Virus genome (UHGV): UHGV-0185026
DNA length: 26,209 nucleotides
DNA from: a virus
Reading direction: 5' to 3' (one strand)
The position numbers and the translations under genes were made by a program. The number at the start of each line of letters is the position of its first letter. The stretch's first letter is position 1. This document shows positions 5,839 through 26,189 of the stretch, one piece after another. The notes below the pieces were generated by a model. The model saw only the letters and a list, made by a program, of their open reading frames with translations, was not told where the DNA came from and did no database searches.

Positions 5839-6034
5839 AGTCCTCCCGCGAGATCTGCCCGTCGCGCAGAAGCTGGTAGGCTTTGTGTTTGTAGTACCAG
5901 TTGATAGCCAGCATCAGCACACCGATCATCAGGCCGCCCAGCGTTGAGGCATCCTTGATGGACAAATCGCCCAGCCAGGCCAGCACGACGGCGATGCAAT
6001 ACGTGATAAAGGCGCTGATTCGCTCAAGCGTCAT
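5819..6034 (-). CDS. Y: Holin
   Basis: 71-aa protein with two hydrophobic helices and a charged C-terminus, immediately upstream of the endolysin and overlapping its start. Confidence 0.7.
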   Translation of the reverse strand: MTLERISAFITYCIAVVLAWLGDLSIKDASTLGGLMIGVLMLAINWYYKHKAYQLLRDGQISREDYESINR

Positions 6035-6037
6035 AAT

Positions 6038-6241
6038 TCAGTCCCATAGCTGGACGGTCTGCACGGTGGTGGTTGTCGGAATGTCCGGCAGCTCCACCTG
6101 CAGCCCGTGAGGTAAAAAGGGGCCGTATTCGGCAAGCCCCGGATTTGCCTTCAGTACCTGCTCCGTGACACCCTGCGTGCGCCCGTAATGACGCCAGCAA
6201 AGCGCGTCCACCGTGTCATACTGATGCGCACGCACTTTCAT
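6038..6241 (-). CDS. X: Tail protein X (LysM-like)
   Basis: 67-aa ORF MKVRAHQYDTVDALCWRHYGRTQGVTEQVLKANPGLAEYGPFLPHGLQVELPDI..., matching the P2 gpX pattern. Confidence 0.85.
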   Translation of the reverse strand: MKVRAHQYDTVDALCWRHYGRTQGVTEQVLKANPGLAEYGPFLPHGLQVELPDIPTTTTVQTVQLWD

Positions 6242-6705
6242 CAGATAAGCTCCACTGTGCAGTGCGGCGCATCCTGCACCCGACTGATGGCCCAGCGGGC
6301 GTCACGCCACAAATCACCGCTGGATTCCGCCAGTTCCTCGCCCCGCTTCACACCGGATGCCGTGGCGTCATAGTCCTGGTATCGTTCGTTGAGCATGGCG
6401 CGTGCCCAGCAGTAAACCGCGTTGAAATAGTGCTGAATGCGCTCACTTTTGCCGTCCAGCTGTTCCGCCGGAACCTCAGCCAGCGACACATATCCCAGCA
6501 TCTGCTGACGTCTACGAAACTCATACAGCTCTGCGTTGACCTCCGAAATTGCCGACAGGGCAACCTGCTTTAAACGCGGCTGCGTCACCGTGCCGTCAGT
6601 GCGCATCACGCTGCGAAACTCCGACAGGTCCACATCAGGCCAGAACGGCGTATTTCTGATGATTTCCGCCTGTTCCGGTGCCTGTTCTGGCGCAACAAAC
6701 TTCAT
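6241..6705 (-). CDS. L: Head completion/stabilisation protein gpL
   Basis: ORF 6241..6768; start placed at the internal Met (MKFVAPEQ...), which is preceded by an AGGAGA ribosome-binding site. Confidence 0.85.
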   Translation of the reverse strand: MKFVAPEQAPEQAEIIRNTPFWPDVDLSEFRSVMRTDGTVTQPRLKQVALSAISEVNAELYEFRRRQQMLGYVSLAEVPAEQLDGKSERIQHYFNAVYCWARAMLNERYQDYDATASGVKRGEELAESSGDLWRDARWAISRVQDAPHCTVELI

Positions 6706-6800: not shown

Positions 6801-7451
6801 TCAGCGGCTGTCATTGCGCAGTCTGCGCTCCAGCTGCTGTTTGTCTTTTTTCACGCCACAGCGGGGATCGAGCTGTAACGCATGGTTGAGATGGTTAAGG
6901 GCAGAAGCCGGATTGCTTTCACTCAGGACAGCGCCAATCGCTTTATGCAGACGCGCCCGTGACTGGTCCGGCATATCCAGACCGTCTGTCAGCTCCAGCG
7001 TCTGCAACAACAGATCGGCATCAAAGCCGGTGGCGGCAAGCATTGCGCTCTGCGCCGCGTCTGCCATTTCCTCTGCCAGCACGGTCTGCACATTGCGGTT
7101 ACCCAGCGGCATCACCCAGCCATGACGCAGGGCATGACGCCCGATCTCCAGCGCCCCGGCATAATCTCCGGCATCAATGCGCCACAGCATCACGTACATC
7201 AGCACGTCATCCTGCTGTGCGCCTCCGGCAGTCAGGACACCCTCTGCCCAGGCGGCGTACTTCGGCAGCAGCTCCACCTTGATTTCCGCTTTTTTGACCG
7301 TGGACTGAACGCCCTTGAGACGGCGGCGGTCTTCCGCCAGTTGCAGCAGCATCAGGTCATAGCCCGACGCGTGGCGAACACTGCCGCCCTCGCGGGCGGC
7401 CTGTTCAGCCTGAACGCGCAGGCGATGCTGCCGTGCGGGACTCAGGCTCAT
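6801..7451 (-). CDS. M: Terminase small (endonuclease) subunit gpM
   Basis: 216-aa ORF downstream of capsid gene N, in the P2 M position. Confidence 0.85.
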   Translation of the reverse strand: MSLSPARQHRLRVQAEQAAREGGSVRHASGYDLMLLQLAEDRRRLKGVQSTVKKAEIKVELLPKYAAWAEGVLTAGGAQQDDVLMYVMLWRIDAGDYAGALEIGRHALRHGWVMPLGNRNVQTVLAEEMADAAQSAMLAATGFDADLLLQTLELTDGLDMPDQSRARLHKAIGAVLSESNPASALNHLNHALQLDPRCGVKKDKQQLERRLRNDSR

Positions 7452-7454
7452 GGT

Positions 7455-8513
7455 TTATGCTCCGGCTTCTGCGGCGGCGGCGCTGAAGTCGCCAATCTGG
7501 ATGTTTTCCACCAGTGCTGCGCAGCGGTAGTCCTCAACCACATAGGCTTCGTTAACGGATTCAAAGTTTTCAATCCGGTCACGTTTCGGGTTGTCGATAA
7601 CCGAACGGCGGCGGGTGTCCTCCTGCCAGTAAATGGACAGGTTATCCAGACGGGTGATCAGCAGCGCATTCGGCGGGAAGAACGGCGCACGCACGGCCTG
7701 CAGACCACCCATGCGTTTCTGACTGATGATCATATCGGCAGCCAGTTTTTCACTGTTTTCCTGCTCTTTGTTGACCAGCGGGAAATACTTGTCAGACAGC
7801 AGCTCACGACCGCAAATCACCACCAGATCGTCATCGTCCTGGTAGACCACGTCGATAAGCTCATTGACCGCATCCATCACCACGGCGTCCAGGTTGGCAT
7901 ATTCGCCACCTTTCCCGACTTTCACCGCACCCGGTATGGTTTCACCGCCCGTGGTGGTGCTGCCCATGACGTGATCCGGTGCATCCTCACGGATTTTCTG
8001 CAGCCAGCCTTTGTTCACATCCTGCAGCAGCGGGTTTTCGCTACGGTTAGAGGTTTTCGCACGCTTCACTCCGTTAAAGCCAATCATGATGCGGTCCAGT
8101 GCCTGACGTTTCACGATGGCGTTACGGATACGCACCTGGAAATCCTGAAACTTCGCCCACAGGTCCAGCTTCGCGTAGGTCAGCACCGTGTCAAAGTTGG
8201 TCTGTTCGCATTTGTATTCCACATCGACCATCAGCGTCGGATCGACAGGTTCACGCTCTTTCGCGGTGGTGTCAGTGGTTCCGGCAATGGTGCTGCCAAC
8301 ACCCAGCCCCAGCAGCTGACCGGACTGCTCAGTCACTGGCGTGACGTTAATCAGCGTCAGGAAAGCGGCGGACTGCTGGATCTGGTCTTCCAGCGTCTGC
8401 TGCACAGACGGCTCTACAGTGAACTTGCTGGACAGTTCTTCAACTGCCACACCGTTCAGACGTGCCAGTTGCTGCAGGTAAGCGTTAAAAGCAAAGCGGG
8501 TATTCTTCTTCAT
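7455..8513 (-). CDS. N: Major capsid protein gpN
   Basis: 352-aa ORF MKKNTRFAFNAYLQQLARLNGV..., with the size and position of the P2 N capsid protein. Confidence 0.9.
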   Translation of the reverse strand: MKKNTRFAFNAYLQQLARLNGVAVEELSSKFTVEPSVQQTLEDQIQQSAAFLTLINVTPVTEQSGQLLGLGVGSTIAGTTDTTAKEREPVDPTLMVDVEYKCEQTNFDTVLTYAKLDLWAKFQDFQVRIRNAIVKRQALDRIMIGFNGVKRAKTSNRSENPLLQDVNKGWLQKIREDAPDHVMGSTTTGGETIPGAVKVGKGGEYANLDAVVMDAVNELIDVVYQDDDDLVVICGRELLSDKYFPLVNKEQENSEKLAADMIISQKRMGGLQAVRAPFFPPNALLITRLDNLSIYWQEDTRRRSVIDNPKRDRIENFESVNEAYVVEDYRCAALVENIQIGDFSAAAAEAGA

Positions 8514-8529
8514 CAGGTTTTGTGCTCCA

Positions 8530-9363
8530 TCAGCAATTGGTCAGAGTGTCAGCGGGGGCGTTACCGCCTGTTGCACGCTGGCGGTAGTCCTGGCGGCTGT
8601 CTTCATGACTCAGCTTATTCACCAGTTCGTTAAAGGCGGTTTGCTGCTCCTGCAGAGCAGTCTCCAGCTCAGACAGGCGTTCTTCCTGCTCAGACAGGGA
8701 TTTTTCGGTGCGTGCGCTCAGGTTCTGCTGCTCAGTGGCGACCAGCTCTACGGCCTTATGCACATCAGAGAACCGGGCGTCATCGGACTGCTCTTTTTTG
8801 GTAAACAGCGCCGTGACACGGGCAAACAGGGACGGCTTGTCCTCCTGGATTTCTTCCAGTTCGATCACCGTTTCCTCTGCAGCGGTAAAAAGATTGGCGG
8901 GATTCTGCTTGCGGTTTGCCAGCGGGTTATGGGTTGCACTGGCGCTGAATGTCAGCATTTCCGTACCCAGACTGGCGGGATCATCAGTGGCAGCCAGGCC
9001 GACCAGGTAGGCTTTACCCGTATCAGCGAACTTCGGGCTGACTTCCATAGAGGTGAATAATTTCTGGCCTTTTTTCACCAGTTCCACCAGGGACTCCGTT
9101 GGCTCAACGTCGGCATACAGCGCCATCTTGCCTGCCAGCGGACCTTCCGTGATTTCTTCAGCAAACAGCGCCGTCACCTTGCCGTAGCGGTTAAAGGTGC
9201 TGTCCGGCAGATAAGACTTGATGTGCTCAAGGTTAATCAGCGCGGTATACACCGCCGGGTTGTAGCTGGCTGCCATCTGTTCCAGCCATTCACGCTGGAT
9301 TTCGCGTCCGTCGGTGGTGGCACCTTCCACCCCGATGCGAAAACGCTTTGCTTTCACTGTCAT
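8530..9363 (-). CDS. O: Capsid scaffolding protein gpO
   Basis: 277-aa ORF MTVKAKRFRIGVEGATTDGREI..., first gene of the rightward late operon, divergent from P. Confidence 0.85.
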   Translation of the reverse strand: MTVKAKRFRIGVEGATTDGREIQREWLEQMAASYNPAVYTALINLEHIKSYLPDSTFNRYGKVTALFAEEITEGPLAGKMALYADVEPTESLVELVKKGQKLFTSMEVSPKFADTGKAYLVGLAATDDPASLGTEMLTFSASATHNPLANRKQNPANLFTAAEETVIELEEIQEDKPSLFARVTALFTKKEQSDDARFSDVHKAVELVATEQQNLSARTEKSLSEQEERLSELETALQEQQTAFNELVNKLSHEDSRQDYRQRATGGNAPADTLTNC

Positions 9364-9505: not shown

Positions 9506-11272
9506 ATGAACACCACACTGACACCCGCAGATCTCGATCCCCGTCGGCAGGCCATGCTGCTGTACTTTCAGGGATACCGCGTAGCCCGCATTGCTGAAAT
9601 GCTGGGCGAGAAAGTTGCAACCGTTCACAGCTGGAAAAAACGCGACAAGTGGGGTGACTATGGGCCGCTGGATCAGATGCAGCTCACCACCGCCGCACGC
9701 TACTGCCAGCTCATTATGAAGGAGCACAAAGAAGGGAAAGATTTCAAAGAGATTGACCTGCTGGCGCGCCAGTCTGAGCGCCACGCGCGGATCGGCAAGT
9801 TTAACAATGGCGGCAACGAAGCCGACTTAAACCCTAACGTCGCCAACCGCAACAAAGGCCCACGCCGTCAGCCGGAAAAGAATGTTTTCACCGATGAACA
9901 GATTGAGAAGCTGGAAGAAATCTTCCATTCCTCCATGTTCAACTACCAGCGCCACTGGTGGGAAGCCGGAAAAACCAACCGCATCCGCAACCTGCTGAAG
10001 TCACGCCAGATCGGCGCGACCTTCTATTTTGCCCGTGAAGCCCTGATTGACGCCCTGCTGACCGGACGTAACCAGATTTTCCTTTCTGCCAGTAAGGCAC
10101 AGGCCCACGTCTTCAAACAGTACATCATCGACTTTGCCAAAGAAGTAGAGGTGGAGCTGAAAGGCGATCCGATGGTGCTTCCCAACGGGGCCACACTGTA
10201 TTTCCTCGGCACCAATGCCCGCACGGCCCAGAGTTATCACGGCAACCTGTATCTGGATGAATATTTCTGGATACCAAAATTCCAGGAGCTGCGCAAAGTG
10301 GCTTCCGGTATGGCTATTCACAAAAAATGGCGACAAACCTATTTTTCCACGCCATCCAGTCTGACACACAGTGCTTATCCGTTCTGGTCCGGTGCGCTGT
10401 TCAACCGTGGGCGCAACAAAGCCGATAAGGTGGACATCGACCTGTCCCACAGCAATCTGGCCCCCGGCCTGCTGTGCGCAGACGGGCAATACCGCCAGAT
10501 AGTCACCGTGGAAGATGCGGTGCGCGGCGGCTGTAACCTGTTCGACCTCGACCAGCTACGCATGGAGTACAGCCCGGACGAATACCAGAACCTGCTGATG
10601 TGCGAGTTTGTGGACGATCTCGCGTCCGTGTTTCCGCTCAGCGAGCTGCAGGCGTGCATGGTGGACAGTTGGGAAGTCTGGACCGACTTTCATGCACTGG
10701 CGCTGCGCCCGTTTGGCTGGCGCGAAGTGTGGATCGGTTATGACCCGGCAAAAGGCACGCAAAACGGCGACAGCGCCGGATGCGTGGTGGTGGCACCGCC
10801 AGCCGTGCCGGGTGGTAAGTTCCGCATTCTTGAGCGTCACCAGTGGCGCGGGATGGACTTCCGCGCCCAGGCTGACGCCATCAAAAAACTGACCGAACAG
10901 TACAACGTGACCTATATCGGTATCGACTCAACCGGCGTTGGTCACGGGGTTTACGAGAACGTGAAAGCGTTTTTTCCTGCCGTCCGGGAGTTTGTCTACA
11001 ACCCCAACGTTAAAAACGCCCTGGTACTCAAGGCCTACGACATTATCAGCCACCGCCGTCTGGAGTTTGACGCCGGACACACCGACATAGCGCAGTCCTT
11101 TATGGCAATACGTCGCGCCACCACCGCCAGTGGCAACCGCCCGACCTATGAAGCCAGCCGCAGCGAAGAAGCCAGCCACGCCGATCTGGCCTGGGCAACG
11201 ATGCACGCACTGTTTAACGAACCGCTGCAGGGCGAATCCGCCAATACCAGCAATATTGTGGAGATTTTTTGA
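9506..11272 (+). CDS. P: Terminase large (ATPase) subunit gpP
   Basis: 588-aa ORF MNTTLTPADLDPRRQAMLLYFQGYRVARIAEMLG...; position and size match P2 gpP. Confidence 0.9.
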   Translation: MNTTLTPADLDPRRQAMLLYFQGYRVARIAEMLGEKVATVHSWKKRDKWGDYGPLDQMQLTTAARYCQLIMKEHKEGKDFKEIDLLARQSERHARIGKFNNGGNEADLNPNVANRNKGPRRQPEKNVFTDEQIEKLEEIFHSSMFNYQRHWWEAGKTNRIRNLLKSRQIGATFYFAREALIDALLTGRNQIFLSASKAQAHVFKQYIIDFAKEVEVELKGDPMVLPNGATLYFLGTNARTAQSYHGNLYLDEYFWIPKFQELRKVASGMAIHKKWRQTYFSTPSSLTHSAYPFWSGALFNRGRNKADKVDIDLSHSNLAPGLLCADGQYRQIVTVEDAVRGGCNLFDLDQLRMEYSPDEYQNLLMCEFVDDLASVFPLSELQACMVDSWEVWTDFHALALRPFGWREVWIGYDPAKGTQNGDSAGCVVVAPPAVPGGKFRILERHQWRGMDFRAQADAIKKLTEQYNVTYIGIDSTGVGHGVYENVKAFFPAVREFVYNPNVKNALVLKAYDIISHRRLEFDAGHTDIAQSFMAIRRATTASGNRPTYEASRSEEASHADLAWATMHALFNEPLQGESANTSNIVEIF

Positions 11273-12297
11273 TGGGAAAGAGTAAGAAGAACCGCACTGC
11301 GGCGACGAATCAGATCCAGCATAAAAACCAGACTTCAGCCGAAGCATTCAGCTTCGGTGATCCCGTTCCAGTACTTGACCGCCGCGAACTGCTGGACTAT
11401 GTGGAATGTGTTCAGACAGATCGCTGGTATGAGCCTCCCGTCAGCTTTGACGGACTGGCGCGCACCTTCCGCGCTGCCGTGCATCATAGTTCCCCGATTG
11501 CAGTAAAGTGCAACATTCTGACCAGTACCTATATCCCTCATCCGCTGCTCAGCCAACAGGCTTTTTCGCGTTTTGTGCAGGACTATCTGGTATTTGGTAA
11601 CGCCTACCTGGAGAAACGCACGAACCGATTCGGTGAAGTTATCGCCCTTGAGCCTGCGCTGGCAAAATACACCCGACGCGGGTTAGACCTGGATACCTAC
11701 TGGTTTGTGCAATACGGTATGACAACCCAGCCGTATCAGTTCACGAAAGGCAGCATTTTTCATCTGATGGAACCGGACATCAACCAGGAGATCTACGGCC
11801 TGCCCGGCTATCTTTCTGCCATTCCATCCGCCCTGCTCAACGAATCCGCCACGCTGTTCCGCCGTAAGTATTACATCAACGGTAGTCATGCAGGCTTCAT
11901 CATGTACATGACCGACGCCGCGCAGAATCAGGAGGATGTGAACAACCTCCGCAACGCGATGAAAAGCGCCAAAGGTCCAGGCAACTTCCGCAATCTGTTT
12001 ATGTACTCGCCTAACGGCAAAAAGGACGGACTTCAGATTATCCCGTTGTCAGAAGTCGCAGCGAAAGATGAATTTCTGAACATCAAGAACGTGAGCCGGG
12101 ACGACATGATGGCTGCACACCGCGTACCGCCTCAGATGATGGGAATTTTGCCGAATAATGTTGGGGGGTTTGGGGATGTGGAGAAGGCTAGTAAGGTATT
12201 TATGCGCAATGAATTGGTGCCCATGCAGAAAAGATTTGATCAATTAAACGACTGGCTTGAAATAGAAATAATTAGATTTAGACCATACGTACTTTGA
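11272..12297 (+). CDS. Q: Portal protein gpQ
   Basis: 342-aa ORF; the ATG overlaps the P stop (TGATG). P2 gpQ-like position downstream of P. Confidence 0.9.
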   Translation: MGKSKKNRTAATNQIQHKNQTSAEAFSFGDPVPVLDRRELLDYVECVQTDRWYEPPVSFDGLARTFRAAVHHSSPIAVKCNILTSTYIPHPLLSQQAFSRFVQDYLVFGNAYLEKRTNRFGEVIALEPALAKYTRRGLDLDTYWFVQYGMTTQPYQFTKGSIFHLMEPDINQEIYGLPGYLSAIPSALLNESATLFRRKYYINGSHAGFIMYMTDAAQNQEDVNNLRNAMKSAKGPGNFRNLFMYSPNGKKDGLQIIPLSEVAAKDEFLNIKNVSRDDMMAAHRVPPQMMGILPNNVGGFGDVEKASKVFMRNELVPMQKRFDQLNDWLEIEIIRFRPYVL

Positions 12298-12362: not shown

Positions 12363-14267
12363 TTACTCAATTATTTTCAATGAATAATTATCTGGCGAAT
12401 AATACTCACCAACAATATATTCACTCTCACTGTATTTGGGATTTATTTCAGATGTTGCAAATATCAACTGATAATCATGTTCATAACGTGAGCACTCATC
12501 AATTATTATTTCCTGTAAATTGTGACTCCGTTCTTTTTCCATTCCACCATCGTCGATCCCATCTAACATCATAAATCTTGGAAGTCGCATTGAGTGGTTC
12601 TCTATACTTGCTGAAAGTAGTGCCAAATGGAATATATGCCTTAATACTACAGCTGAACTTTCAGAAAAGTTCTTACTACCATTCACATAAACGCTATTAT
12701 CAGTAAAACTAAACTCCACACTTTCAGGAGACATAAACTCTTTTTGCAAAGGCAAATCTTCTTGTAAAAGCTCTTGTGCTATTGAGCTCACTGAAGCATA
12801 AATTTTATCTTTAAGAACTTCCTCTTTTTCTTCATAAAGTTCAATAAGATCATCAAGTCTATTTTTTTCCGCCTGAAGTTCATCGCGACGCTCTTGAAGT
12901 TCATTAATAACAACAATAAGCTTCTTATCTTCATAAGCTCTTTTTATTTCTTCATCAAGCCGTCCAATTTCCCTATATATTTTACCTACAGCTAACTCTT
13001 GCGGTGAAGACCAATAGTGTGACTCTTTGAAATAATCCTGTTCAAGCCTTTTTAATTCACTCTCAGCTAAAGGAACATCTCGCTTTAATCTTACCAACTC
13101 TTCTTTTCTTCTATCCATTAATTGAAGAGATTCTTTGATTTGAAGAGTTAATTCATTTTTCATTCTTAATAACTGATTTTCAGCTTTATCATCTAATTGT
13201 TCCACTTTACATAGATGACAAACATGATCATTATGAGCCTTATCTATTTTGGAAAGACAACTAGGGCAAAAATCAAAATTCATACTATCAAATATAGCAC
13301 GCGTTTCTCCAGACTGTTCTAAGTTTTTTAGCCGCTCATTTAATTCTGATATAAACATATCAGAATCTGAAATTTCAAAATCCAAAGATTGGATTTTATC
13401 TTTTAGGGAAGATAATTTCCTTTTAGCTTCATTGAGTTCCTCCCTGATAGTACCCATTCGTTTTTCAGAATCAGCCCCTTCTTCATTAGTTATAATAGCT
13501 CTATTTGTTAGTTTTACATTCTCAATAGCTCTCAATTTATTTAGATGCTTTATTTTCTCATCAATACCTTGTAAATCTGGAGCCTGTCCAGATCTACCTA
13601 ATACAGTAAAGATACTTTTTAATTCAGTAACTTTCTTTGTTAGTTCGGTCTCAACATCTCTTAAAGAAAGTTGTGCATTGTACAACTCATCATTATAAAC
13701 ACCACATAAGTATCCACCTACCGTCTCACGGGTAAGAGCATTATCAAATCTGTCAAATCGAAAAATTGGACTATGTAACGACGGCTGATCTGCATACAAG
13801 ACACGTAAAATCTGATGCAATGTCAAATTAGAAGAACCAGCACCTTGTGCCAAGGGCATTGATAATGCATTAAAAATAGCTTGGGTGAAGCTAATTTTAC
13901 TCTCAGTTCTCTTGAATGGGTATAATTCCCATTCGTGTTCCCCAGCATTCAAAGCCTTATCCATCGCTCCCCAATAAATATAAAGAGGTCGCATTTGCTC
14001 AATAGATATCTCTCGTTTAAAGCATGCTTTCTCATTATTGAGAAGCACTTCAACGATTGTTCTAGTGCATTTCAAAGCCTGTGGTTTCCACCTGATATTT
14101 TCAGCTCCCAATGAAAATGCCAGCATATCCATTATTGTAGTTTTACCAGAACTATTTCGCCCACGAATAATGTTAACACCTTTGTGGAATTCACAATCAA
14201 ATGCACGATGTCCGTGTTGAAAAACTGTTAATCTGGTTACAATAAGAGTAGGCTTAATAAGTGTCAT
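12363..14267 (-). CDS. SMC/Rad50-like ABC ATPase with long coiled coil and central Cys4 motif (Lamassu LmuB / ABC-3C-type ATPase candidate)
   Basis: 634 aa. N-terminal Walker A (GRNSSGKTT), C-terminal Walker B/D-loop-like FMMLDGIDDGG, and about 300 residues of heptad-rich E/K/L sequence with CPSC-x13-CHLC near its middle. AT-rich composition. Confidence 0.65.
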   Translation of the reverse strand: MTLIKPTLIVTRLTVFQHGHRAFDCEFHKGVNIIRGRNSSGKTTIMDMLAFSLGAENIRWKPQALKCTRTIVEVLLNNEKACFKREISIEQMRPLYIYWGAMDKALNAGEHEWELYPFKRTESKISFTQAIFNALSMPLAQGAGSSNLTLHQILRVLYADQPSLHSPIFRFDRFDNALTRETVGGYLCGVYNDELYNAQLSLRDVETELTKKVTELKSIFTVLGRSGQAPDLQGIDEKIKHLNKLRAIENVKLTNRAIITNEEGADSEKRMGTIREELNEAKRKLSSLKDKIQSLDFEISDSDMFISELNERLKNLEQSGETRAIFDSMNFDFCPSCLSKIDKAHNDHVCHLCKVEQLDDKAENQLLRMKNELTLQIKESLQLMDRRKEELVRLKRDVPLAESELKRLEQDYFKESHYWSSPQELAVGKIYREIGRLDEEIKRAYEDKKLIVVINELQERRDELQAEKNRLDDLIELYEEKEEVLKDKIYASVSSIAQELLQEDLPLQKEFMSPESVEFSFTDNSVYVNGSKNFSESSAVVLRHIFHLALLSASIENHSMRLPRFMMLDGIDDGGMEKERSHNLQEIIIDECSRYEHDYQLIFATSEINPKYSESEYIVGEYYSPDNYSLKIIE

Positions 14268-14754
14268 ATCTATACTCCATAAGTTTAGTTCTAGCCTTCA
14301 ATCCATCAGGTCCAGTCAGATGAAATTTAGCCATCTTTTGTGTAATGAAAGATGAAAACGGTTCTTTGCGCTCTAAAAAAACGCCCATTTCTAAGGCTAG
14401 GTTCAGTGGTAATTGTTTATTTGTTCTTGAGACAAAACCATTGCTGAAATCATCAGAATCAATATAACCAGTCGCAAGCATACATTTTAGTGCTGCATCC
14501 TGTATTTGACGCATTTCCTTGAAAATAATCCTTGGACTCAATGGATCATGATATTCATTATGATGTAGTTTTGCTGTTTTTTTAATTTTAATAAATTCTC
14601 TCGGCATTTTCACTTCACTTAATAACGCAGGAAATAAAATGTAAAAATCCAATATTTTAAGCTTATCAATCTCAAGCCGATTTGTATTTTCCATAATTGC
14701 CATCATTCTAAATAGACAATGATAGGCATCATATGCTGGATGATAAACTAACAT
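14254..14754 (-). CDS. Hypothetical alpha-helical protein, translationally coupled partner of the SMC-like ATPase
   Basis: 166-aa ORF; its start overlaps the stop of the upstream gene (ATGTTAG) and its stop overlaps the ATPase start by 14 nt. No recognisable catalytic motif. Confidence 0.6.
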   Translation of the reverse strand: MLVYHPAYDAYHCLFRMMAIMENTNRLEIDKLKILDFYILFPALLSEVKMPREFIKIKKTAKLHHNEYHDPLSPRIIFKEMRQIQDAALKCMLATGYIDSDDFSNGFVSRTNKQLPLNLALEMGVFLERKEPFSSFITQKMAKFHLTGPDGLKARTKLMEYRYDTY

Positions 14755-15359
14755 TTATCCCACCTTATATAACAATTTCCGCCTAAAAAATACAACAGTC
14801 CCAAAAGATCCTTTTCGGATAAGTTTAACAAATTATCGCCCAACATTTCACTAATATTTTCTAATACCAATGAAATTTTTTCATCAACAATTACTCGGTC
14901 CTCATCCTTCTGAATAAGAGGTATAATTTTGAGCATAAAATCAGCATGAATTTTATCAAGAATAAACGCATATATTTCTTGTGCGGTTTTGGAAGATTGG
15001 CACTTCATTATCGCCTTGAGGGCTTGCTCTTTAAGAGCAGTTGCAAAGTAAATTAATTCAGTTCTATCACTATCAGTTAGCTTTGTAGCTAAATCTCTTA
15101 TATCTGGATTGGTATCCGAGGCTAAATAGTGCTTTAACTTATCACAAAAATCCTGCCCCCCCATAGTTCCATCTTCTTGAGAGAACTTTTGGTACAAACG
15201 CTCTAAAGTTCGATTACTACTACGAACTATATTGGTAATGTGGTTTGTTTGACTCCCTCCAACAATACTCCCATTTCTTACTCTATTACCTGATTGCTCC
15301 TGTTTACTAAACACACCAATCACTCCCTTAGTGAGAATTAGTCTGATCTCTACCGACAA
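14748..15359 (-). CDS. Hypothetical protein, second gene of the SMC-like ATPase operon; true start probably the in-frame GTG near 15314
   Basis: ORF of 203 codons from a TTG. An AAGGGAG ribosome-binding site overlaps the stop of the upstream small gene, about 8 nt before an in-frame GTG. The N-terminus carries an NGSIVGxxQTN motif. Confidence 0.55.
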   Translation of the reverse strand: MSVEIRLILTKGVIGVFSKQEQSGNRVRNGSIVGGSQTNHITNIVRSSNRTLERLYQKFSQEDGTMGGQDFCDKLKHYLASDTNPDIRDLATKLTDSDRTELIYFATALKEQALKAIMKCQSSKTAQEIYAFILDKIHADFMLKIIPLIQKDEDRVIVDEKISLVLENISEMLGDNLLNLSEKDLLGLLYFLGGNCYIRWDKC

Positions 15360-15510
15360 TGCTTCCGTTTGTCACTGTATTTCCATTTTGAATGGGAGAA
15401 CTTTGGTTCATACAAATTTGCTTTACTTTGTAATTATACACATTGAAAGTAATAGCCCAACTGATACCCGCCCCTGCCAAAAAACTAATGATTTCGCTTA
15501 AGTATTCCAT
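15328..15510 (-). CDS. Small single-pass membrane protein (about 60 aa), first gene of the operon
   Basis: ATG preceded by a GGAGG ribosome-binding site; hydrophobic helix IISFLAGAGISWAITFNV. The C-terminal NGSIVGRDQTN motif is repeated in the next gene. Confidence 0.45.
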   Translation of the reverse strand: MEYLSEIISFLAGAGISWAITFNVYNYKVKQICMNQSSPIQNGNTVTNGSIVGRDQTNSH

Positions 15511-15597
15511 AATGCCTCCAACAGAATGATTTACGGACAATTCTAATTGTGAAACATCATATTTAACAAGTTCTCAAATAAAACCTAATACGCGCGC

Positions 15598-15616
15598 TCG
15601 TATCCCCGCCACGCCT
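15598..15616 (-). other. Candidate cos (cohesive end) site
   Basis: The minus strand reads GGCGTGGCGGGGATACGAG followed by CGCGCG. As recalled, P2/186 cohesive ends are GGCGAGGCGGGGAAAGCAC and GGCGTGGCGGGGAAAGCAT; the first 13 nt match the 186-type end. Orientation points toward Q, as in P2. Confidence 0.3.
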
Positions 15617-15886
15617 GCCCGCTTTATATAGTGGTTTTCATGCACCTGCATGACATAAGCAAAAGCCCGCCATACCTAGCAGGCCCCAACTAGAGCGATC
15701 CTTAAACGATCATGCGGATTCATGCAGTATAGACATGCAGTAGTTACGCCAAACCGTGTAGCGAGGCCACCTGCTAAAAATGTTCACGGAGTAACATTTG
15801 ATCTCCACTGCAAAAAATGAAACTTTCGCTTTCACCAAATATAACAAGAGGTAATCTTTGGTGTTTTACACAGCAAACGGTGAGCC

Positions 15887-16468
15887 ATGAAAGTCAACAT
15901 AAAACAGATTGTTGGAAATTGGGAATTAGGTCTTGCGATGGATAAACACAGCATCCGCAGCATTCCCATTGGTTACGATGAGTGGGGACATATGCGGTTT
16001 GAGACGGAGCGTACTGAGGTAGGCGAATCTCTTTTCCAGCTTAAATACCGTGACGATTGGTCACAAGTTAAGCCTTTAGCCCAATGCCTAGCAGAGCATG
16101 CCTTTCCTCATTTCAGCAATGTCGGGTTTATCGTTCCAATGGCTGCATCTAATCAGCGTGCACGCCAGCCAGTGACCGAAATAGCTCAGGAACTAGCCAA
16201 ACTAGTTGGCAAACCATGCTTCGATGACCTCTTGTTGAAAGCCCCCGGCGGGGCATCGCTAAAGAACCTGAATACAAAAGAAGAGAAAATCACGGCGCTG
16301 GGTAATTCGTTCTCTGTTAATGACAGTATTGAGAATAATGGCAACTGGAATGTCCTTATCATTGACGACCTCTACCATACAGGCGCATCTATGGAGGCTG
16401 CTTGTGCTGTGCTAAACGATTATACTAAGGTTAGAAGCATTTATGTTGCAGCTTTGACTTGGAGATAG
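15887..16468 (+). CDS. Phosphoribosyltransferase (PRTase)-domain protein, ShosT-like candidate
   Basis: 193 aa with the PRPP-binding signature NVLIIDDLYHTGASMEAA near the C-terminus. First gene of a two-gene plus-strand module in the cargo island. Confidence 0.7.
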   Translation: MKVNIKQIVGNWELGLAMDKHSIRSIPIGYDEWGHMRFETERTEVGESLFQLKYRDDWSQVKPLAQCLAEHAFPHFSNVGFIVPMAASNQRARQPVTEIAQELAKLVGKPCFDDLLLKAPGGASLKNLNTKEEKITALGNSFSVNDSIENNGNWNVLIIDDLYHTGASMEAACAVLNDYTKVRSIYVAALTWR

Positions 16469-16470
16469 TG

Positions 16471-17028
16471 ATGACTACGGTATTTGTTGCTGGTTCAATA
16501 ACCATCAAAAACCTTGACACACTCATCGTGGATCGTCTGAAAAAAATTGTTAACTCGCGTTTTCGTATTGTAGTTGGTGATGCCAATGGTGTTGATTCAT
16601 CTGTTCAACGCGTATTGCTAGAACTTGGATGTGAAAAAGCCACAGTATTCAGTAGCTCAGAAAAACCGCGCAATAATCTTGGCTCATGGCCTGTACATGT
16701 AGTAAGTACTAGCCATGCAGCCGGCACTCGCGCGTTTTTCACTGCGAAAGATCTCAAAATGGCAGAAGAAGCCGATTATGGATTAATGGTTTGGGATACG
16801 AAGAGCACGGGTACTCTGAGTAACGTGATTGAGCTTCTTAAACGTAAAAAATACTCTGTCGTTTTTGTTAATAAATACAAAAAGTTCTTTATTATCAAAT
16901 CTCCAGAGCACCTTGACGCTTTGATTAACTGCATGTCACCAGCCTCTTTGGAAAAAGCTGATGAAAAGATCAGATTGCGCGAAAAAATCAACCAACTAAA
17001 AAACGAGCAAATCCAGATGTTTATGTGA
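16471..17028 (+). CDS. DprA/Smf-like (SLOG-type Rossmann) protein, ShosA-like candidate
   Basis: ATG two nucleotides after the PRTase stop, with a GGAGA ribosome-binding site. N-terminal VFVAGS...IVVGDANGVD pattern resembles the DprA Rossmann-fold motifs. Confidence 0.55.
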   Translation: MTTVFVAGSITIKNLDTLIVDRLKKIVNSRFRIVVGDANGVDSSVQRVLLELGCEKATVFSSSEKPRNNLGSWPVHVVSTSHAAGTRAFFTAKDLKMAEEADYGLMVWDTKSTGTLSNVIELLKRKKYSVVFVNKYKKFFIIKSPEHLDALINCMSPASLEKADEKIRLREKINQLKNEQIQMFM

Positions 17029-17117
17029 AATTCTTTGATGATAACACTAACGCCTCGCCCTGCTCGTTGTTCAACCTTGCTGGCTTCAGAATCAAGTACT
17101 GATGCCAGCAACGTTTC

Positions 17118-17351
17118 TTAATGCAGCCAGCTGTCGTCTTCCCACACCTTCTGCATAATTTTCATCACTTGTTTTCTTTCTTCGTCCAGTTGCAGTCCGG
17201 TCAGTTCCACACCGTTAGAGCTACCTTTTCGGATACGAATTACCGTTTTGGGATACAGGGGGCGCAGATTGCGGTAAAGCTCGGATTCAAGGGCGTCCAG
17301 GGTAGACTGGCTAATCTTCTGCTCTTTATCGATCATTATTTCAATGCGCAT
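17118..17351 (-). CDS. DinI-family protein (damage-inducible protein I-like)
   Basis: ORF 17118..17423; start placed at MRIEIMIDKEQ..., preceded by a GAGGTGA ribosome-binding site. The 77-aa product matches the DinI pattern (MRIE..., acidic C-terminus WEDDSWLH). Confidence 0.75.
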   Translation of the reverse strand: MRIEIMIDKEQKISQSTLDALESELYRNLRPLYPKTVIRIRKGSSNGVELTGLQLDEERKQVMKIMQKVWEDDSWLH

Positions 17352-17361
17352 AAAAGTCACC

Positions 17362-17550
17362 TCAACTGATGACATCCATTGAGCGGTTGTATTCGTGAGT
17401 TCTGATTTTTGCCATGAGTTCATCAGTCAATTCAGAAACCCACTGCAGGGCCAGCCCCTTCTCTTCATCACTACACTCACTAGCCGCTACAAGCTTAAGA
17501 AAAAAATCAATGCGCTGGAGCTTCAAAGACTCCAAAAAATAGTCCTGCAT
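17362..17550 (-). CDS. Small protein upstream of the DinI-like gene, possible Tum-like antirepressor
   Basis: 62-aa ORF with a strong AGGAGG ribosome-binding site, about 40 nt downstream of a LexA-box-like palindrome. Its position corresponds to the 186 tum operon downstream of A. Confidence 0.35.
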   Translation of the reverse strand: MQDYFLESLKLQRIDFFLKLVAASECSDEEKGLALQWVSELTDELMAKIRTHEYNRSMDVIS

Positions 17551-17702: not shown

Positions 17703-20117
17703 TTAATACAGGTTTCGCCACTTATCATCTTCCTGCAAACGCTGGTTCCGATAGAAGATACGCAGGCCTGCTCCTGACGGAATACTGCCTCCGCGAAGCA
17801 GTAAATCGACCTCTTTCTCGCTGCCATCAAATCCCCTGGACTTCAGTTCATACACGAGCTGCAGTCGCTGATGGTCTGTAATTCGCTGTTTGTAGTCTTT
17901 ACGCCGTTTCGGTTTCACCAGGCGTAACCTTGCTGCCAGTTCCCGGCGCTCTTTTTTGCTCATACTGTGCAGGTAATCGTGCAACTCCTTGTCATCCATG
18001 CGGGTGATATCCGTTCTGGTATCTCCATCAGCTGATTTGTCTTTCCCTTGTTGGTACAAATTTTCAGCAAGGGGACAGTTATTGCCACGAGTCCAAGGGG
18101 CGCAAGCGCCCTGGTCGGCTGCCGCCTCCTGAACGTCAACGGCTTTACGAACCATTTTCCACTTCACTGCATGAGTGCAGATCTTGCCCTCTGCAATGGG
18201 TGACCAGATGCCATAAATACGAATGCCGTGATCGCCATAGGCGGTCGGCTCTTCGTTGATTTCATAAGCGGTTCTGATGAGGTGATATTTACGGGGAACC
18301 AGTACGCCGCCCTGCTTCATGATGTAGGTGGCAAAACAACCAGCATCAGCAGCAGCCAGAATGGCATCAAGACGCGGGTTATCCAGTACCGGCGCACCTG
18401 CTTTTTTGTCACCCTGTTGCCTTGCCGCCTGACCAGCCAGCAAGCGAAGTTCACGGTAAGCCTGACGCCCCGGAATACCAAAGAAGCGGAATTGCTGAAC
18501 ACGATGCAGAGACGCCCAGGCATTCACGTATTCAGCGTTATCACGCAGAGATTTACCCGTTTCCTTGCTGATCTCGCCAGCCAGACCACGACCGTCAATG
18601 TTCTTACTGATATATTTCGCGATGTAGCTTGTCGGCGTTCCTTTGCGCGGGTTAATCAACTCAGACTTAAAGCGCGGCCCAGTGTTATTGCCCAGCTCCT
18701 CGCGGTCTTCACGGATGGCAAACTTACGCAGTAATGCAGTGATGGCACGGCGGTCTTTTTTGCGCATGAAACACAACAGGTGCCAGTGAACTGTGCCATC
18801 ATGATGCGGCTCAGCCACCCGCACGCCATACCAGCGCAACCCGGCTTTGTGCATCGCCTTACGAAATGCAGCAAACATGCCGACCAGATAATCGCTGCTT
18901 TGTCTTACCGTCGCGTTTGTCCAGGTCGGGTTTGGTCTGCCGTTATTTAGCGTGGAATGGAAACGCGACGGACAGGTGATAGTGTAGAAAACGGCGCAGT
19001 CACCGCGCATTTCCGCGATAAGCTCCAGACCTTTAACACAGGCCATCATCTCATTGCGGCGATGCGCAGGGTTGCTGCTGCTGGCGTTTACCACATCCTC
19101 CATGTCCAGCGTGTCGCCGTCTTCGTTCACCAGTTCATGAGAACGGAAAAACTCCAGCGACTTACGGCGCTGCTCACGTTTATGCATCACGGCTTCATAG
19201 CTGACATAAGGAGATGCTTTTTTGCTGACCAGGCAAACAGCGCGCAACTGCTCTTCCCGCCATTCGCAACGCATCTTCCATAATTTCCGATACCACCAGT
19301 CGGCGCACAACATACGCGCCAGCGAACCCGGAATGAGTTCATAGGGCACGGGTTTACGGCGGTTTCTTTTCCGACGAAGTTTCTCAAACGCAGGCGGGAT
19401 AACATCCAGACGCAGGGTTTCCGCAGCCACCTTTTCCCATGTCTTGCGGATTTCTTCTGGCTTAACGTCATCGGTGGCGTACAAATCACCACAAGCGGCC
19501 TCAAGACACATGCTCATATGCGCTGCTACCAGGGTGGACAGGCGTTTCACCTGATCCTGGCTCATTTCAGGCAGGATCAGCAGCCCCTCCAGTCCTTGAT
19601 GGCTTGCCATAAAACGGAAAGAAACAGATAGCTGACTGTCACGTACACAATCCAGTCGCTCCAGACATGGCTTAATCGTCTCACGCAAATAGCGGGAATA
19701 AGCCTTTGGCCTGCCCAGGCTGCTGAAGTATTCGATACGTTGCATCAGCGGCTTGCTGATATGAGAAGGCTGGGCGCTGACATCTGCCAGAATGACCATG
19801 TCCGGGTTAAAACGCTGCTGCTCATGCGCCAGCTTTGCCCGGCTAATGAGCTTATCCTGCTCCATTTCGCGCTGGACAGGATCACGGGATTCATTAAAGA
19901 AATAACGCTCCCAGACCTGCTCACTCAGTGCCTCGCGGCGCAGTTGTTCCTGCTCGTTATCGGCAGCGTACAGAGTGATCAGGTTTGAAAGTGCAGACTC
20001 CGGCGCAACTTCCGCCGGATCCAGATAAGGGTTAATGGCCTTTTTCGGGCCGTTCCATGAAAATGCTGCGGCAGCCTCGTTAAAGCCGCTAGAGTTGCTC
20101 ATATCGTCATGACTCAT
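17703..20117 (-). CDS. A: Replication initiation endonuclease gpA (rolling-circle initiator)
   Basis: 804-aa ORF containing [12 protein letters not shown] and HHDGTVHWH-type motifs characteristic of P2 gpA-family initiators. Confidence 0.9.
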
Positions 20118-20971
20118 ACACGCACCTCGTACACAGCAAAACTATCCACGCCACGCGAAGGATCAAATCCCATCCAGCAGCGCGACCCGGAAACAGCAAT
20201 GATTTCTGTTGCAGATTTACTCTCGCCAGCTGACACGCCGATGCTGCGTTTTGCCTTGATGTAGTGGTGAGTGAAATTGCGATACAGCGAACGGATCAGG
20301 GATGTGTCACTGTTAGAAACAATGACCGGATGACCTTCTGATGATCGATATTCAAGAACGGATGCCAGGTGATACTGGTCATCTTCAGTGAAGCCGTCAG
20401 TGTGATAACCGGAAAACGTGCCGTCATACGGCGGATCGCAATACACCACATCCCCCGCCTTCAACATCGCCAGCGTTTCATCAAAGCTGGCGCAGATAAA
20501 CGTTGCTCGCTGGGCCTTTTCTGCAAATGCGCGAATTTCTTTTTCAGGGAAATACGGATTTTTATAATTACCGTAGGGAATGTTGAAATGCCCGCTCTTG
20601 TTATAGCGACATAAACCACGGTAACCGTGACGATTGAGATACAGGAAATATACCGCTTTCATGAAATCAGTAATTTCAGTTGAGTAATTAAACTCCTGCC
20701 TTATGTTGTAATAAGCTAGATCACTGTTTGCTTCCTCAAACAAAGTTCTGGTCCGCGATATAAACGCCTCGCAATCAGCGGCAATCTTTTTATAGAGGTT
20801 GATTAAATCAGGATTAATATCCGCAACCAGATAGCTGGGGTAATCCGTCTCCATCATCACAGCACAGGAACCCGCGAAAGGTTCAACCAGTCGCGGGCCA
20901 GCAGGTAGGTATTTTTTCAGTTCGGACATAATTGCGGTTTTATTTCCCGCCCATTTCAGGATGGTGCTCAT
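20114..20971 (-). CDS. dam: DNA adenine methyltransferase (Dam family, GATC-type)
   Basis: ORF 20114..21031; start placed at [11 protein letters not shown]. Contains [33 protein letters not shown] and DPPY motifs, near colinear with E. coli Dam. Its stop overlaps the A start (ATGA). Confidence 0.85.
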
Positions 20972-21195
20972 ACAGCACCTCCGTTGTAATGTTTGCCTTT
21001 CAGCTCTGCGATTTCCTGACAGGTAATGCAAAGCTGCACTCCAGGAATGGCACGGCGGCGTGCTGGCGGAATTGGTGCTTCACATTCAATGCAAAGCACG
21101 CGAGACACGCCCGGTGTTTTGGCACGGGCAGCACGGATATGGCGCTGGCGTTCTTCTTCAACGCGCTGCTGTACGAGATCCATTGCATCAGCCAT
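20968..21195 (-). CDS. TraR/DksA-family C4 zinc-finger protein
   Basis: 75 aa with CIECEAPIP...CITCQ (Cys4); its stop overlaps the Dam start. Confidence 0.7.
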   Translation of the reverse strand: MADAMDLVQQRVEEERQRHIRAARAKTPGVSRVLCIECEAPIPPARRRAIPGVQLCITCQEIAELKGKHYNGGAV

Positions 21196-25622: not shown

Positions 25623-26189
25623 CTACCCTGCAACCCTCTCAACCATCCTCAAAATCTCCTCGCGCGATAGCGGCTTACGGTCGGTGACAAAATGCAGCGT
25701 CATCCCCTCAATAAACGCATCAAGCGCGCGGGCGGTTCCGGGTTCAAACCATTGTTCGAGCGTTTGCTGACTGCGCTGCATCCAGTTTTGCATTACCGTT
25801 TTTAATAGCGGTTTTCGGCTAGCCAGCGCGTAGAGCTGGTACATCAGCTCCATGTTATCCGGCGTTGCAACCTGTGAGCTGTAGATCATATCGGTGATAG
25901 CCTGGCATGCGCCTTGAGCATCACTAACATCGCTAAAAAATGCCTGATATTGCCGGGACATAATCTCAGTAAAACTGCTGAACGCCTCCAGCAACAACTC
26001 ATCAATTCCTGAAAAATAGTAGGTCATCGATCCCAACGGTACCTCGGCAAGGGTAGCAATTTTGCGGTGCGTAACAGCATGTATTCCGTAAAGTTTCACC
26101 GCCTCCAGCGTGGCCTGGATAATTTTTTCTCGCCGTTGCGGATCGTTAGCGCGACGCATGTCATTTCCTCTGTCTGCAATTGTGTACAA
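25623..26189 (-). CDS. TetR/AcrR-family transcriptional regulator (host gene flanking the prophage)
   Basis: 188 aa with an N-terminal TetR-type helix-turn-helix ([40 protein letters not shown]); composition differs from the adjacent phage DNA. Confidence 0.8.

Follow-up and report, generated by a model that had tools for sequence, protein, structure and literature searches.

ShosTA, a type IV toxin–antitoxin system that defends against phages ('DprA+PRTase' in Rousset 2022; Millman 2022) and comes from Escherichia coli APEC O1, with structures 8ZVA, 8ZVB and 8ZVD, combines a phosphoribosyltransferase (PRTase) with a partner of SLOG fold. The 424-amino-acid (aa) ShosT carries a HAD-like pyrophosphatase domain (residues 1-164) ahead of its PRTase domain, and the ~328-aa ShosA a SAM domain ahead of a DprA domain, PF02481 (PMC11961720, PMC12961424). 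Mutation of ShosT D331/D332 abolishes toxicity, and the instability of ShosA is mediated by its C-terminus (PMC11961720). The single-stranded DNA (ssDNA)-binding arginines of ShosA comprise the essential R139 and R234 and also R261, and R139 is needed both to bind ssDNA and for antitoxin activity (PMC12961424). The gpA–cos–gpQ defence hotspot of P2 carries old/tin and canonical ShosTA, and over one third of the systems tested from it were defensive (PMC9122126). Among related proteins, ComFC, which has a long pyrophosphate (PPi) loop and a long flexible loop as ShosT does (PMC9005727, PMC12961424), binds ssDNA and interacts with DprA in transformation (PMC9005727); a YpsA-family branch of SLOG proteins is coupled to PRTases among nucleotide-centred conflict systems (PMC6459960); and the combination of a PRTase with NADAR is a validated defence system (PMC13092281 supplement). 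Here we analysed a 26,209-nucleotide (nt) stretch of UHGV virus genome UHGV-0185026, referred to below as the window, in which two adjacent open reading frames (ORF1 and ORF2; positions 15,887 to 17,028) encode a PRTase and a SLOG protein reduced to their core domains. We propose, with a probability of roughly 0.55, that this pair is a minimal toxin–antitoxin or abortive-infection/defence module of the ShosTA/PsyrTA kind, carried as cargo by a P2/186-like prophage.

A compact PRTase–SLOG gene pair

ORF1 (15887..16468, plus strand) runs from an ATG to a TAG stop and encodes a 193-aa ComF/ShosT-type type I PRTase, the predicted effector or toxin. ORF2 (16471..17028, plus strand) encodes a 185-aa Rossmannoid protein of the SLOG superfamily, the predicted antitoxin or regulator. 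The ORF listing opens this second frame at a TTG (16459..17028), and the ATG at 16471 is its likely start; a Shine-Dalgarno motif read from the sequence, GGAGA (16461..16465, plus strand), is located within the 3' end of ORF1, 5 nt before this ATG. The two co-directional frames are thus separated by a 2-nt gap between the TAG and the ATG, in full agreement with the coordinates and spacing given in the original prediction. This gap, together with the placement of GGAGA inside the end of ORF1, suggests translational coupling of the two genes.

The PRTase assignment had been proposed from a signature for binding of phosphoribosyl pyrophosphate (PRPP), and this motif, VLIIDDLYHTGAS, is indeed present at ORF1 residues 156-168. 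Support from the Pfam family PF00156 is marginal: the model covered the PRPP loop only, with E=0.01 and 15.6 bits, under the 26.3-bit gathering cut-off; in a family-wide Pfam scan, 36 of 65 ORF1 homologues reached it at <=0.01. Other profiles scored better: the PADLOC models of ShosT (1.3e-8, profile positions 81-208 of 237) and PsyrT (1.5e-7, 538-681 of 689) both recognised ORF1, and the comF model TIGR00201 matched at 3.6e-5. RefSeq likewise names the protein 'ComF family protein' (WP_024219116). We nonetheless rejected ORF1 as a true ComFC, given its 23.8 bits against a TIGR00201 cut-off of 233.55 and the lack of a zinc finger: the 4-Cys motif is not found in ORF1, and 56 of the 65 homologues have no Cys in their first 50 residues.

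An AlphaFold2 (AF2) model of ORF1 (predicted local distance difference test, pLDDT, 91.6) begins with four short beta strands over residues 1-43. Foldseek searches of the PDB with this model retrieved Helicobacter pylori ComFC (HpComFC, 7p0h) as the best match (8.9e-6), followed by ShosT (8zvd; 4.8e-5, TM 0.55) and then by adenine PRTases. The catalytic loop is conserved throughout the family, D160 being invariant and D161, T165 and G166 retained in at least 90% of homologues; hhalign placed D160/D161 opposite the toxicity determinants D331/D332 of ShosT in an alignment that is colinear and statistically insignificant. The PPi loop is long (~residues 85-94), with R91, R93, Q94 and P95 invariant, and so is the flexible loop (~119-141), which is modelled at lower confidence.

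The fold of ORF2 is unambiguously that of SLOG proteins. The Rossmann motifs from which the second protein had been recognised, VAGS and VVGDANGVD, are both there, and the chain, which begins directly at Rossmann strand 1, contains the Gly-rich loop after this strand, a GxD-type motif and an SxGT-type loop. Residues invariant among homologues fall in these SLOG loops, that is, after strand 1 and in the motifs GDAxGxD and WDxxSxGT. In the AF2 model (pLDDT 94.7), a SLOG domain (residues 1-135) is followed by three helices, and the C-terminus ends in a hydrophobic tail. Foldseek listed ShosA (8zva) first (2.8e-5, TM 0.56), then H. pylori DprA, a molybdenum cofactor (MoCo)-carrier protein, the SLOG domain of ThsA (7uxs), LOG and YpsA; the modelled structure does not single out DprA. 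The protein is basic, with an isoelectric point (pI) of 9.5. The last three residues of its homologues are mostly hydrophobic (MFA, LFA, ALI, LSF, LLL); such an ending resembles non-polar C-terminal protease tags and could make the putative antitoxin labile.

Asymmetric linkage and domain fusions

Homologues with identities of ~55-90% numbered 741 for ORF1 and 1813 for ORF2, and extended over Gamma-, Beta- and Alphaproteobacteria, Acidobacteria and other phyla; a search with the SLOG family profile yielded 2086 clusters at 50% identity. Taking one genome per species, relatives of ORF2 were found in 374 species, from which 80 loci were fetched and inspected. In 69 of these 80 SLOG-anchored loci the gene just before it, in the same orientation and either overlapping slightly or separated by a small gap, encoded a PRTase; the remaining 11 were SLOG orphans without a PRTase, one of them with an IS1-type element in the place of the PRTase gene. 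The reciprocal, PRTase-anchored inspection revealed the SLOG gene directly downstream in 18/18 loci from IMG/VR and 78/80 from metagenomes. In both metagenome exceptions the contig stops at the PRTase, leaving 78/78 informative loci in this set and 96/96 in total. Linkage is therefore obligate for the PRTase, which never occurs without the SLOG gene, and the SLOG gene is sometimes alone, a pattern expected if ORF1 is harmful in the absence of ORF2. This asymmetry is what toxin–antitoxin pairs show, and a toxin/antitoxin logic fits it.

The same families are also joined within single polypeptides. In one representative, P0382 (404 aa), a PRTase and a SLOG domain are naturally fused in the gene order of the pair; the matches have 29% (1e-26) and 36% (8e-33) identity. 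Other relatives of ORF2 have the SLOG domain fused to NADAR, DUF4326, Abi_alpha, HEPN_AbiU2 or a HI1420-type antidote domain (P0276, P0289, P0342, P0362 and P0343; in P0382 the partner is the ORF1-type PRTase). Abi_alpha, HEPN_AbiU2 and NADAR are effectors of conflict systems, and the variety of fusions suggests that the ORF2-type SLOG is a reusable sensor or regulator domain of such systems. Immediate neighbours of the pair in other genomes include retron-type reverse transcriptases (RTs), RloB/AbiLii, integrases, resolvases and transposases.

Orphan SLOG genes recur at one spot in Pseudomonas (L054, L060, L072 and L074-L081; locus coordinates ~5900-6560), flanked by a Bro-N-domain gene on one side and an amino-acid permease or aldehyde dehydrogenase gene on the other, and some of them adjoin an AAA-ATPase plus RloB pair. 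These orphans may provide immunity against incoming PRTases or may be remnants.

A mobile module in the P2 hotspot

The window is a P2/186-like prophage. It encodes the terminase gpP (9506-11272), the portal gpQ (11269-12297) and gpA (17703-20117; PF05840, 8e-128), CII, CI and integrase genes were also identified, and a TetR-family host gene (25623-26189) is by position the counterpart of rcdA in E. coli D2. The minus strand holds a P2/186-type cos core, GGCGTGGCGGGGA, at 15603-15615 (1 match against 0.01 expected), located with the cos consensus (Ziermann & Calendar 1990, cited in PMC9122126). Conservation of the surrounding segment (15591-15739) extends to 1253 E. coli records and to P2-like phages. 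ORF1 and ORF2 sit between this cos core and gpA, which bears out their proposed placement at the cargo position between A and cos, and the variable genes between gpA and gpQ, on either side of cos, are those of the P2 hotspot in a P2-like prophage. The cos core marks where the two cargo slots of the hotspot meet, one on the gpQ side and one on the gpA side. The pair has a GC content of 40-46%, as compared with 52-60% in the phage backbone and 30-46% across 12-17.5 kb, and is transcribed convergently to a DinI-like gene, gpA and the phage early operon.

This locus is not an isolated occurrence. We found the pair at >=99.3% identity in 16 of 5426 complete E. coli genomes, annotated as 'ComF family protein' plus 'hypothetical protein'; in E. 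coli D2 the same pair is accompanied on the gpQ side by another cargo, an AAA ATPase of 778 aa. A variant pair (195 + 185 aa; PRTase 57% and SLOG 63% identical) is inserted between gpD and ogr in a different P2-like prophage (L003-L007, locus coordinates 7411-8558), where it adjoins pheST/ihfA with a hok-like gene near. This variant was present in 8/5426 of the complete E. coli genomes, and the gpD–ogr site is a third cargo position in P2-like phages. The pair also occupies many non-prophage chromosomal spots. It is thus a discrete, mobile two-gene module conserved across several phyla. It had already been catalogued in Table S5 of Rousset et al. (PMC9122126) as system #98, with 33 loci, an identical ORF1 (given there as PRTase_3/Pribosyltran) and an ORF2 that differs by one residue (LDcluster4/DNA_processg_A), so that its discovery is not new in the cataloguing sense.

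The intergenic region 15740..15886 (plus strand), between the conserved cos segment, which ends near 15739, and ORF1, is the presumed location of the promoter. Downstream, an inverted repeat at 17073..17115 (17-nt arms, 88% complementary, 9-nt loop) separates ORF2 from the convergent DinI-like gene and is a candidate bidirectional terminator; the consensus terminator scan did not call it.

Other genes of the hotspot were annotated along with the pair. The gpQ-side slot (12363-15540, minus strand; low GC, 30-38%) contains a Lamassu/ABC-3C-like system, whose trio of genes at 12363-15359 encodes a 634-aa SMC-like ATPase (PADLOC LmuB, 4.5e-43), an MC5 middle component (PF20291, 2e-57) and a 203-aa protein with an ABC-3C CTD9 domain (PF20285, 5e-30). 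A 70-aa ORF (phrog_17975) completes the slot. This system is identical to system #88 of Rousset 2022 Table S5 ('AAA_23', 39 loci). Between the pair and gpA, at 17118-17550 on the minus strand, are the DinI-like gene (PF06183, 1.3e-22), whose longest ORF (101 aa) reaches further upstream than the 77 aa annotated in RefSeq, and, overlapping with it, a phrog_698 gene of 62 aa; both are kept beside many different hotspot cargos (Rousset Table S5). Directly downstream of gpA, a minus-strand gene (20114-21031) encodes a D12-class, Dam-type N6-adenine DNA methyltransferase (PF02086, 8e-76), for which an anti-restriction or epigenetic function in the early operon of this 186-like prophage is possible.

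A minimal toxin–antitoxin or defence module as the preferred reading

From the folds, the catalytic loop, the one-sided linkage, the hotspot setting and mobility of the pair, its neighbours in other genomes and the fusions of the SLOG domain to conflict-system effectors, we infer toxicity of ORF1, its neutralisation by ORF2, a trigger and phage protection, according to the following scheme. ORF1 would bind PRPP through its intact PRPP loop (D160-D161...T165-G166), its long PPi loop and its long flexible loop, and would act as a growth-arresting effector, either by consuming PRPP or by generating an aberrant phosphoribosyl product. The translationally coupled ORF2 would keep ORF1 harmless until infection removed or diverted it. 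Removal might proceed, for example, by proteolysis through the hydrophobic C-terminal tail, and diversion by binding of a phage-derived nucleic acid or nucleotide. The prophage would then carry the module to exclude other phages.

Several observations weigh against this proposal. The DprA model PF02481, which the original prediction had expected to recognise the second protein, found no match in ORF2 at E<=0.1, and neither did the PADLOC model of ShosA. Pfam as a whole gave no match for ORF2, which hit only phrog_289 (6.7e-10) and, weakly, PsyrA (E=0.018, PADLOC). Nor does Pfam cover the family: in no more than 3-4 of 68 relatives is YAcAr, DNA_processg_A or Nuc_deoxyrib_tr touched. On the supporting side, 5 of the 68, a diverse set, reach the PADLOC ShosA model (best E 4e-4). 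PF02481 is present in all 120 ShosA homologues among the matches listed. When the ORF2 family was aligned with the ShosA family, hhalign reported an insignificant probability of 0.2%, the two being colinear over 130 columns. Alignments of the family profiles with the ShosA and ShosT sequences, and with the ShosA-family profile, were similarly colinear and statistically insignificant, and sequence and profile searches of the PDB with the pair found neither ShosT nor ShosA. Homology to ShosA hence rests on structure and not on sequence.

The low-confidence hhalign alignment of the two families pairs GS(R/I) with GTR, GDAxGxD with GLAxGID, and WDxKSxGT with WxxKSGT. In it, ShosA R139 corresponds to I10 of ORF2, a position that is I or M in 63/63 close homologues and R in 48/68 members of the broader family; the invariant K93 stands opposite R234, and I120 opposite R261. 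With the R139 equivalent apparently lost, the ShosA-RecA-ssDNA mechanism may not transfer to ORF2. Architecture adds to these objections. ORF1, with its 193 aa, lacks the pyrophosphatase domain of ShosT (no Pfam match to a HAD/pyrophosphatase domain), and ORF2 lacks the SAM domain of ShosA. The P0382 fusion also suggests that the two proteins are directly and physically coupled, in contrast to ShosT and ShosA, between which there is no binding. The route proposed for ShosA, through ssDNA and RecA and without contact to the toxin, is accordingly weakened here by the apparently lost arginine, the missing SAM domain and the natural fusion. Only a minority of immediate neighbours (~10/150) are known defence proteins, the promoter/terminator scan gave no sigma-70 consensus match upstream of ORF1, and the #98 sequences are absent from the table of tested systems of Rousset et al. 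(PMC9122126). Finally, we found no experimental test of the pair in the literature searched, and it is absent by accession from the DefensePredictor supplements.

Alternative readings of the pair

The main alternative, which we consider unlikely, has the SLOG protein working on the PRTase itself or on its product, via a nucleotide pocket and not via ssDNA and RecA. The PRTase would phosphoribosylate a base or macromolecule, or make an unusual nucleotide, and the SLOG protein would sense this product or hydrolyse it as a LOG-like phosphoribohydrolase, an activity that is the chemical reverse of a PRTase. In sequence alignments, the invariant residues of ORF2 map to the usual ligand-binding loops of SLOG proteins, and the apparent loss of the DprA/ShosA arginine R139 in the ORF2 clade, the minimal architecture of the pair, the single-chain PRTase–SLOG fusion and the fusions of the SLOG domain to NADAR and DUF4326 are all compatible with writing and erasing of phosphoribosyl marks. 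LOG enzymes share a PGGxGTxxE motif with a catalytic Glu, along with an Arg. By eye, however, this Glu appears to be the invariant Asn118 in ORF2 and the LOG Arg to be Lys93, and we rejected ORF2 as a canonical LOG hydrolase on account of the former. The pI of 9.5 fits nucleic-acid binding equally well, and the top Foldseek match of ORF2 is ShosA. Precedents do exist in the validated PRTase plus NADAR defence pair (PMC13092281) and in the PRTase-coupled YpsA-family branch, within SLOG systems predicted to be nucleotide-centred (PMC6459960). Marginally more doubtful still is the fully self-contained version, in which the pair would be a phosphoribosylation writer/eraser or signal/sensor and the SLOG protein would bind or remove an adduct in analogy to DarT/DarG, instead of serving as a DNA-repair-type antitoxin.

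Roles that benefit the phage without defending against others seem to us improbable, even when taken jointly. One possibility is an anti-defence or metabolic moron, in which, for instance, the SLOG protein would act as a sponge for host immune signalling nucleotides, or as an enzyme on them, alongside nucleotide salvage that depends on PRPP; another is a ComFC–DprA-like accessory that handles ssDNA in prophage replication or recombination. The structural match of ORF2 to the ThsA SLOG domain (7uxs), a binder of cyclic ADP-ribose (cADPR) isomers, would suit the former, and the occurrence of orphan SLOG genes also speaks for roles of this type. ComFC, the best structural match of ORF1, binds ssDNA and partners DprA (PMC9005727), which would fit the latter, yet its 4-Cys zinc finger is not in ORF1. 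Against both stand the convergent orientation of the module relative to the phage early operon, its many non-prophage chromosomal locations and a PRTase that is never alone; known phage NAD-salvage PRTases are, moreover, of a different, TIM-barrel type (PMC9503650).

Also improbable is a plain addiction toxin–antitoxin that would help to retain the prophage or island by post-segregational stabilisation with no role in phage defence. It would account equally for the linkage asymmetry and for the location of the pair on mobile elements, beside integrases and transposases, but sits poorly with a hotspot in which over a third of tested systems were defensive (PMC9122126) and with ShosTA and the PRTase effectors of retrons, the characterised systems closest to the pair, which are defensive.

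Significance

Whether or not the pair acts as the toxin–antitoxin or defence module that we favour, it offers a simpler model than its relatives: a bare PRTase domain and a bare SLOG domain of ~21 kDa each, with a natural fused form and with ~55-60% identity kept over Proteobacteria, Acidobacteria and further phyla (~374 species genomes). We know of no acceptor substrate for ShosT, PsyrT/RqlH, the retron PRTase effectors or ComFC. The pair would serve to ask what the PRTase makes, whether the SLOG partner works on DNA and RecA or on a nucleotide ligand, and which parts of ShosTA are dispensable. If defensive, it would be a defence system missed by current PADLOC models and probably by DefenseFinder too; if it writes and erases phosphoribosyl marks, it would reveal the acceptor substrate of ShosT-, PsyrT-, retron- and ComF-type PRTases. 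With canonical ShosTA as precedent, the conceptual surprise is moderate, and a PRTase–SLOG pair in the P2 hotspot will not astonish a specialist. What makes the pair useful is its reduced, widely conserved form together with the fusion, which give a handle on the chemistry of ComF-type PRTase toxins.

Comparison with known systems

Among described systems, the pair can be compared with the type III retron Retron-Eco11 and the PRTase+NADAR system 'NADR', in which a PRTase is likewise the presumed toxic anti-phage effector restrained by a partner (PMC12746101, PMC13092281), whereas the partners are there an RT plus msDNA, or NADAR, and the PRTase is a 343-aa, uracil-PRTase-like protein. YpsA-family SLOG–PRTase pairs (Burroughs et al. 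2015; Brzozowski et al. 2019), to which we liken the locus by description only, also consist of a small SLOG gene and a PRTase gene, and the GxD motif corresponds to G40-x-D42 of ORF2; unlike them, ORF2 has no PF06908 match, and the related YAcAr model is reached by only 4/68 relatives. ComFC–DprA of natural transformation is approached by ORF1 through HpComFC as best structural match, the comF model and the RefSeq name, but the pair is prophage cargo and not a competence locus, and ORF2 is not a PF02481 DprA. PsyrTA/RqlHI has the same combination of a ComF-type PRTase, the PsyrT profile matching ORF1 over its C-terminal PRTase part, with a DprA-like SLOG partner; it differs in the large RecQ-like helicase N-terminal to the PRTase of PsyrT/RqlH (profile length 689), of which ORF1 has none.

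Of these systems, the pair resembles ShosTA most. Both are two-gene modules of a PRTase and a SLOG-fold protein, with a ComF-like PRTase that has the DD PRPP loop and a long PPi loop, and both reside in the same gpA–cos–gpQ hotspot. Besides the domains discussed above, helix alpha14 sets ShosA apart from the 185-aa ORF2; a natural fusion exists here, in contrast to the lack of binding between ShosT and ShosA; and the Rousset table keeps the two as separate systems, ShosTA as #9 and this pair as #98. The ShosTA-type pairing put forward in the original prediction therefore stands at the level of folds, a PRTase with a SLOG/DprA-like partner, and not as ShosTA in its experimentally defined form, whose accessory domains are missing. 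Collectively, the pair is most like ShosTA and departs from it in two architectural features, the pyrophosphatase domain of the toxin and the PF02481 and SAM domains of the antitoxin, and we therefore regard it as a variant of this kind of system and not as a member of ShosTA.

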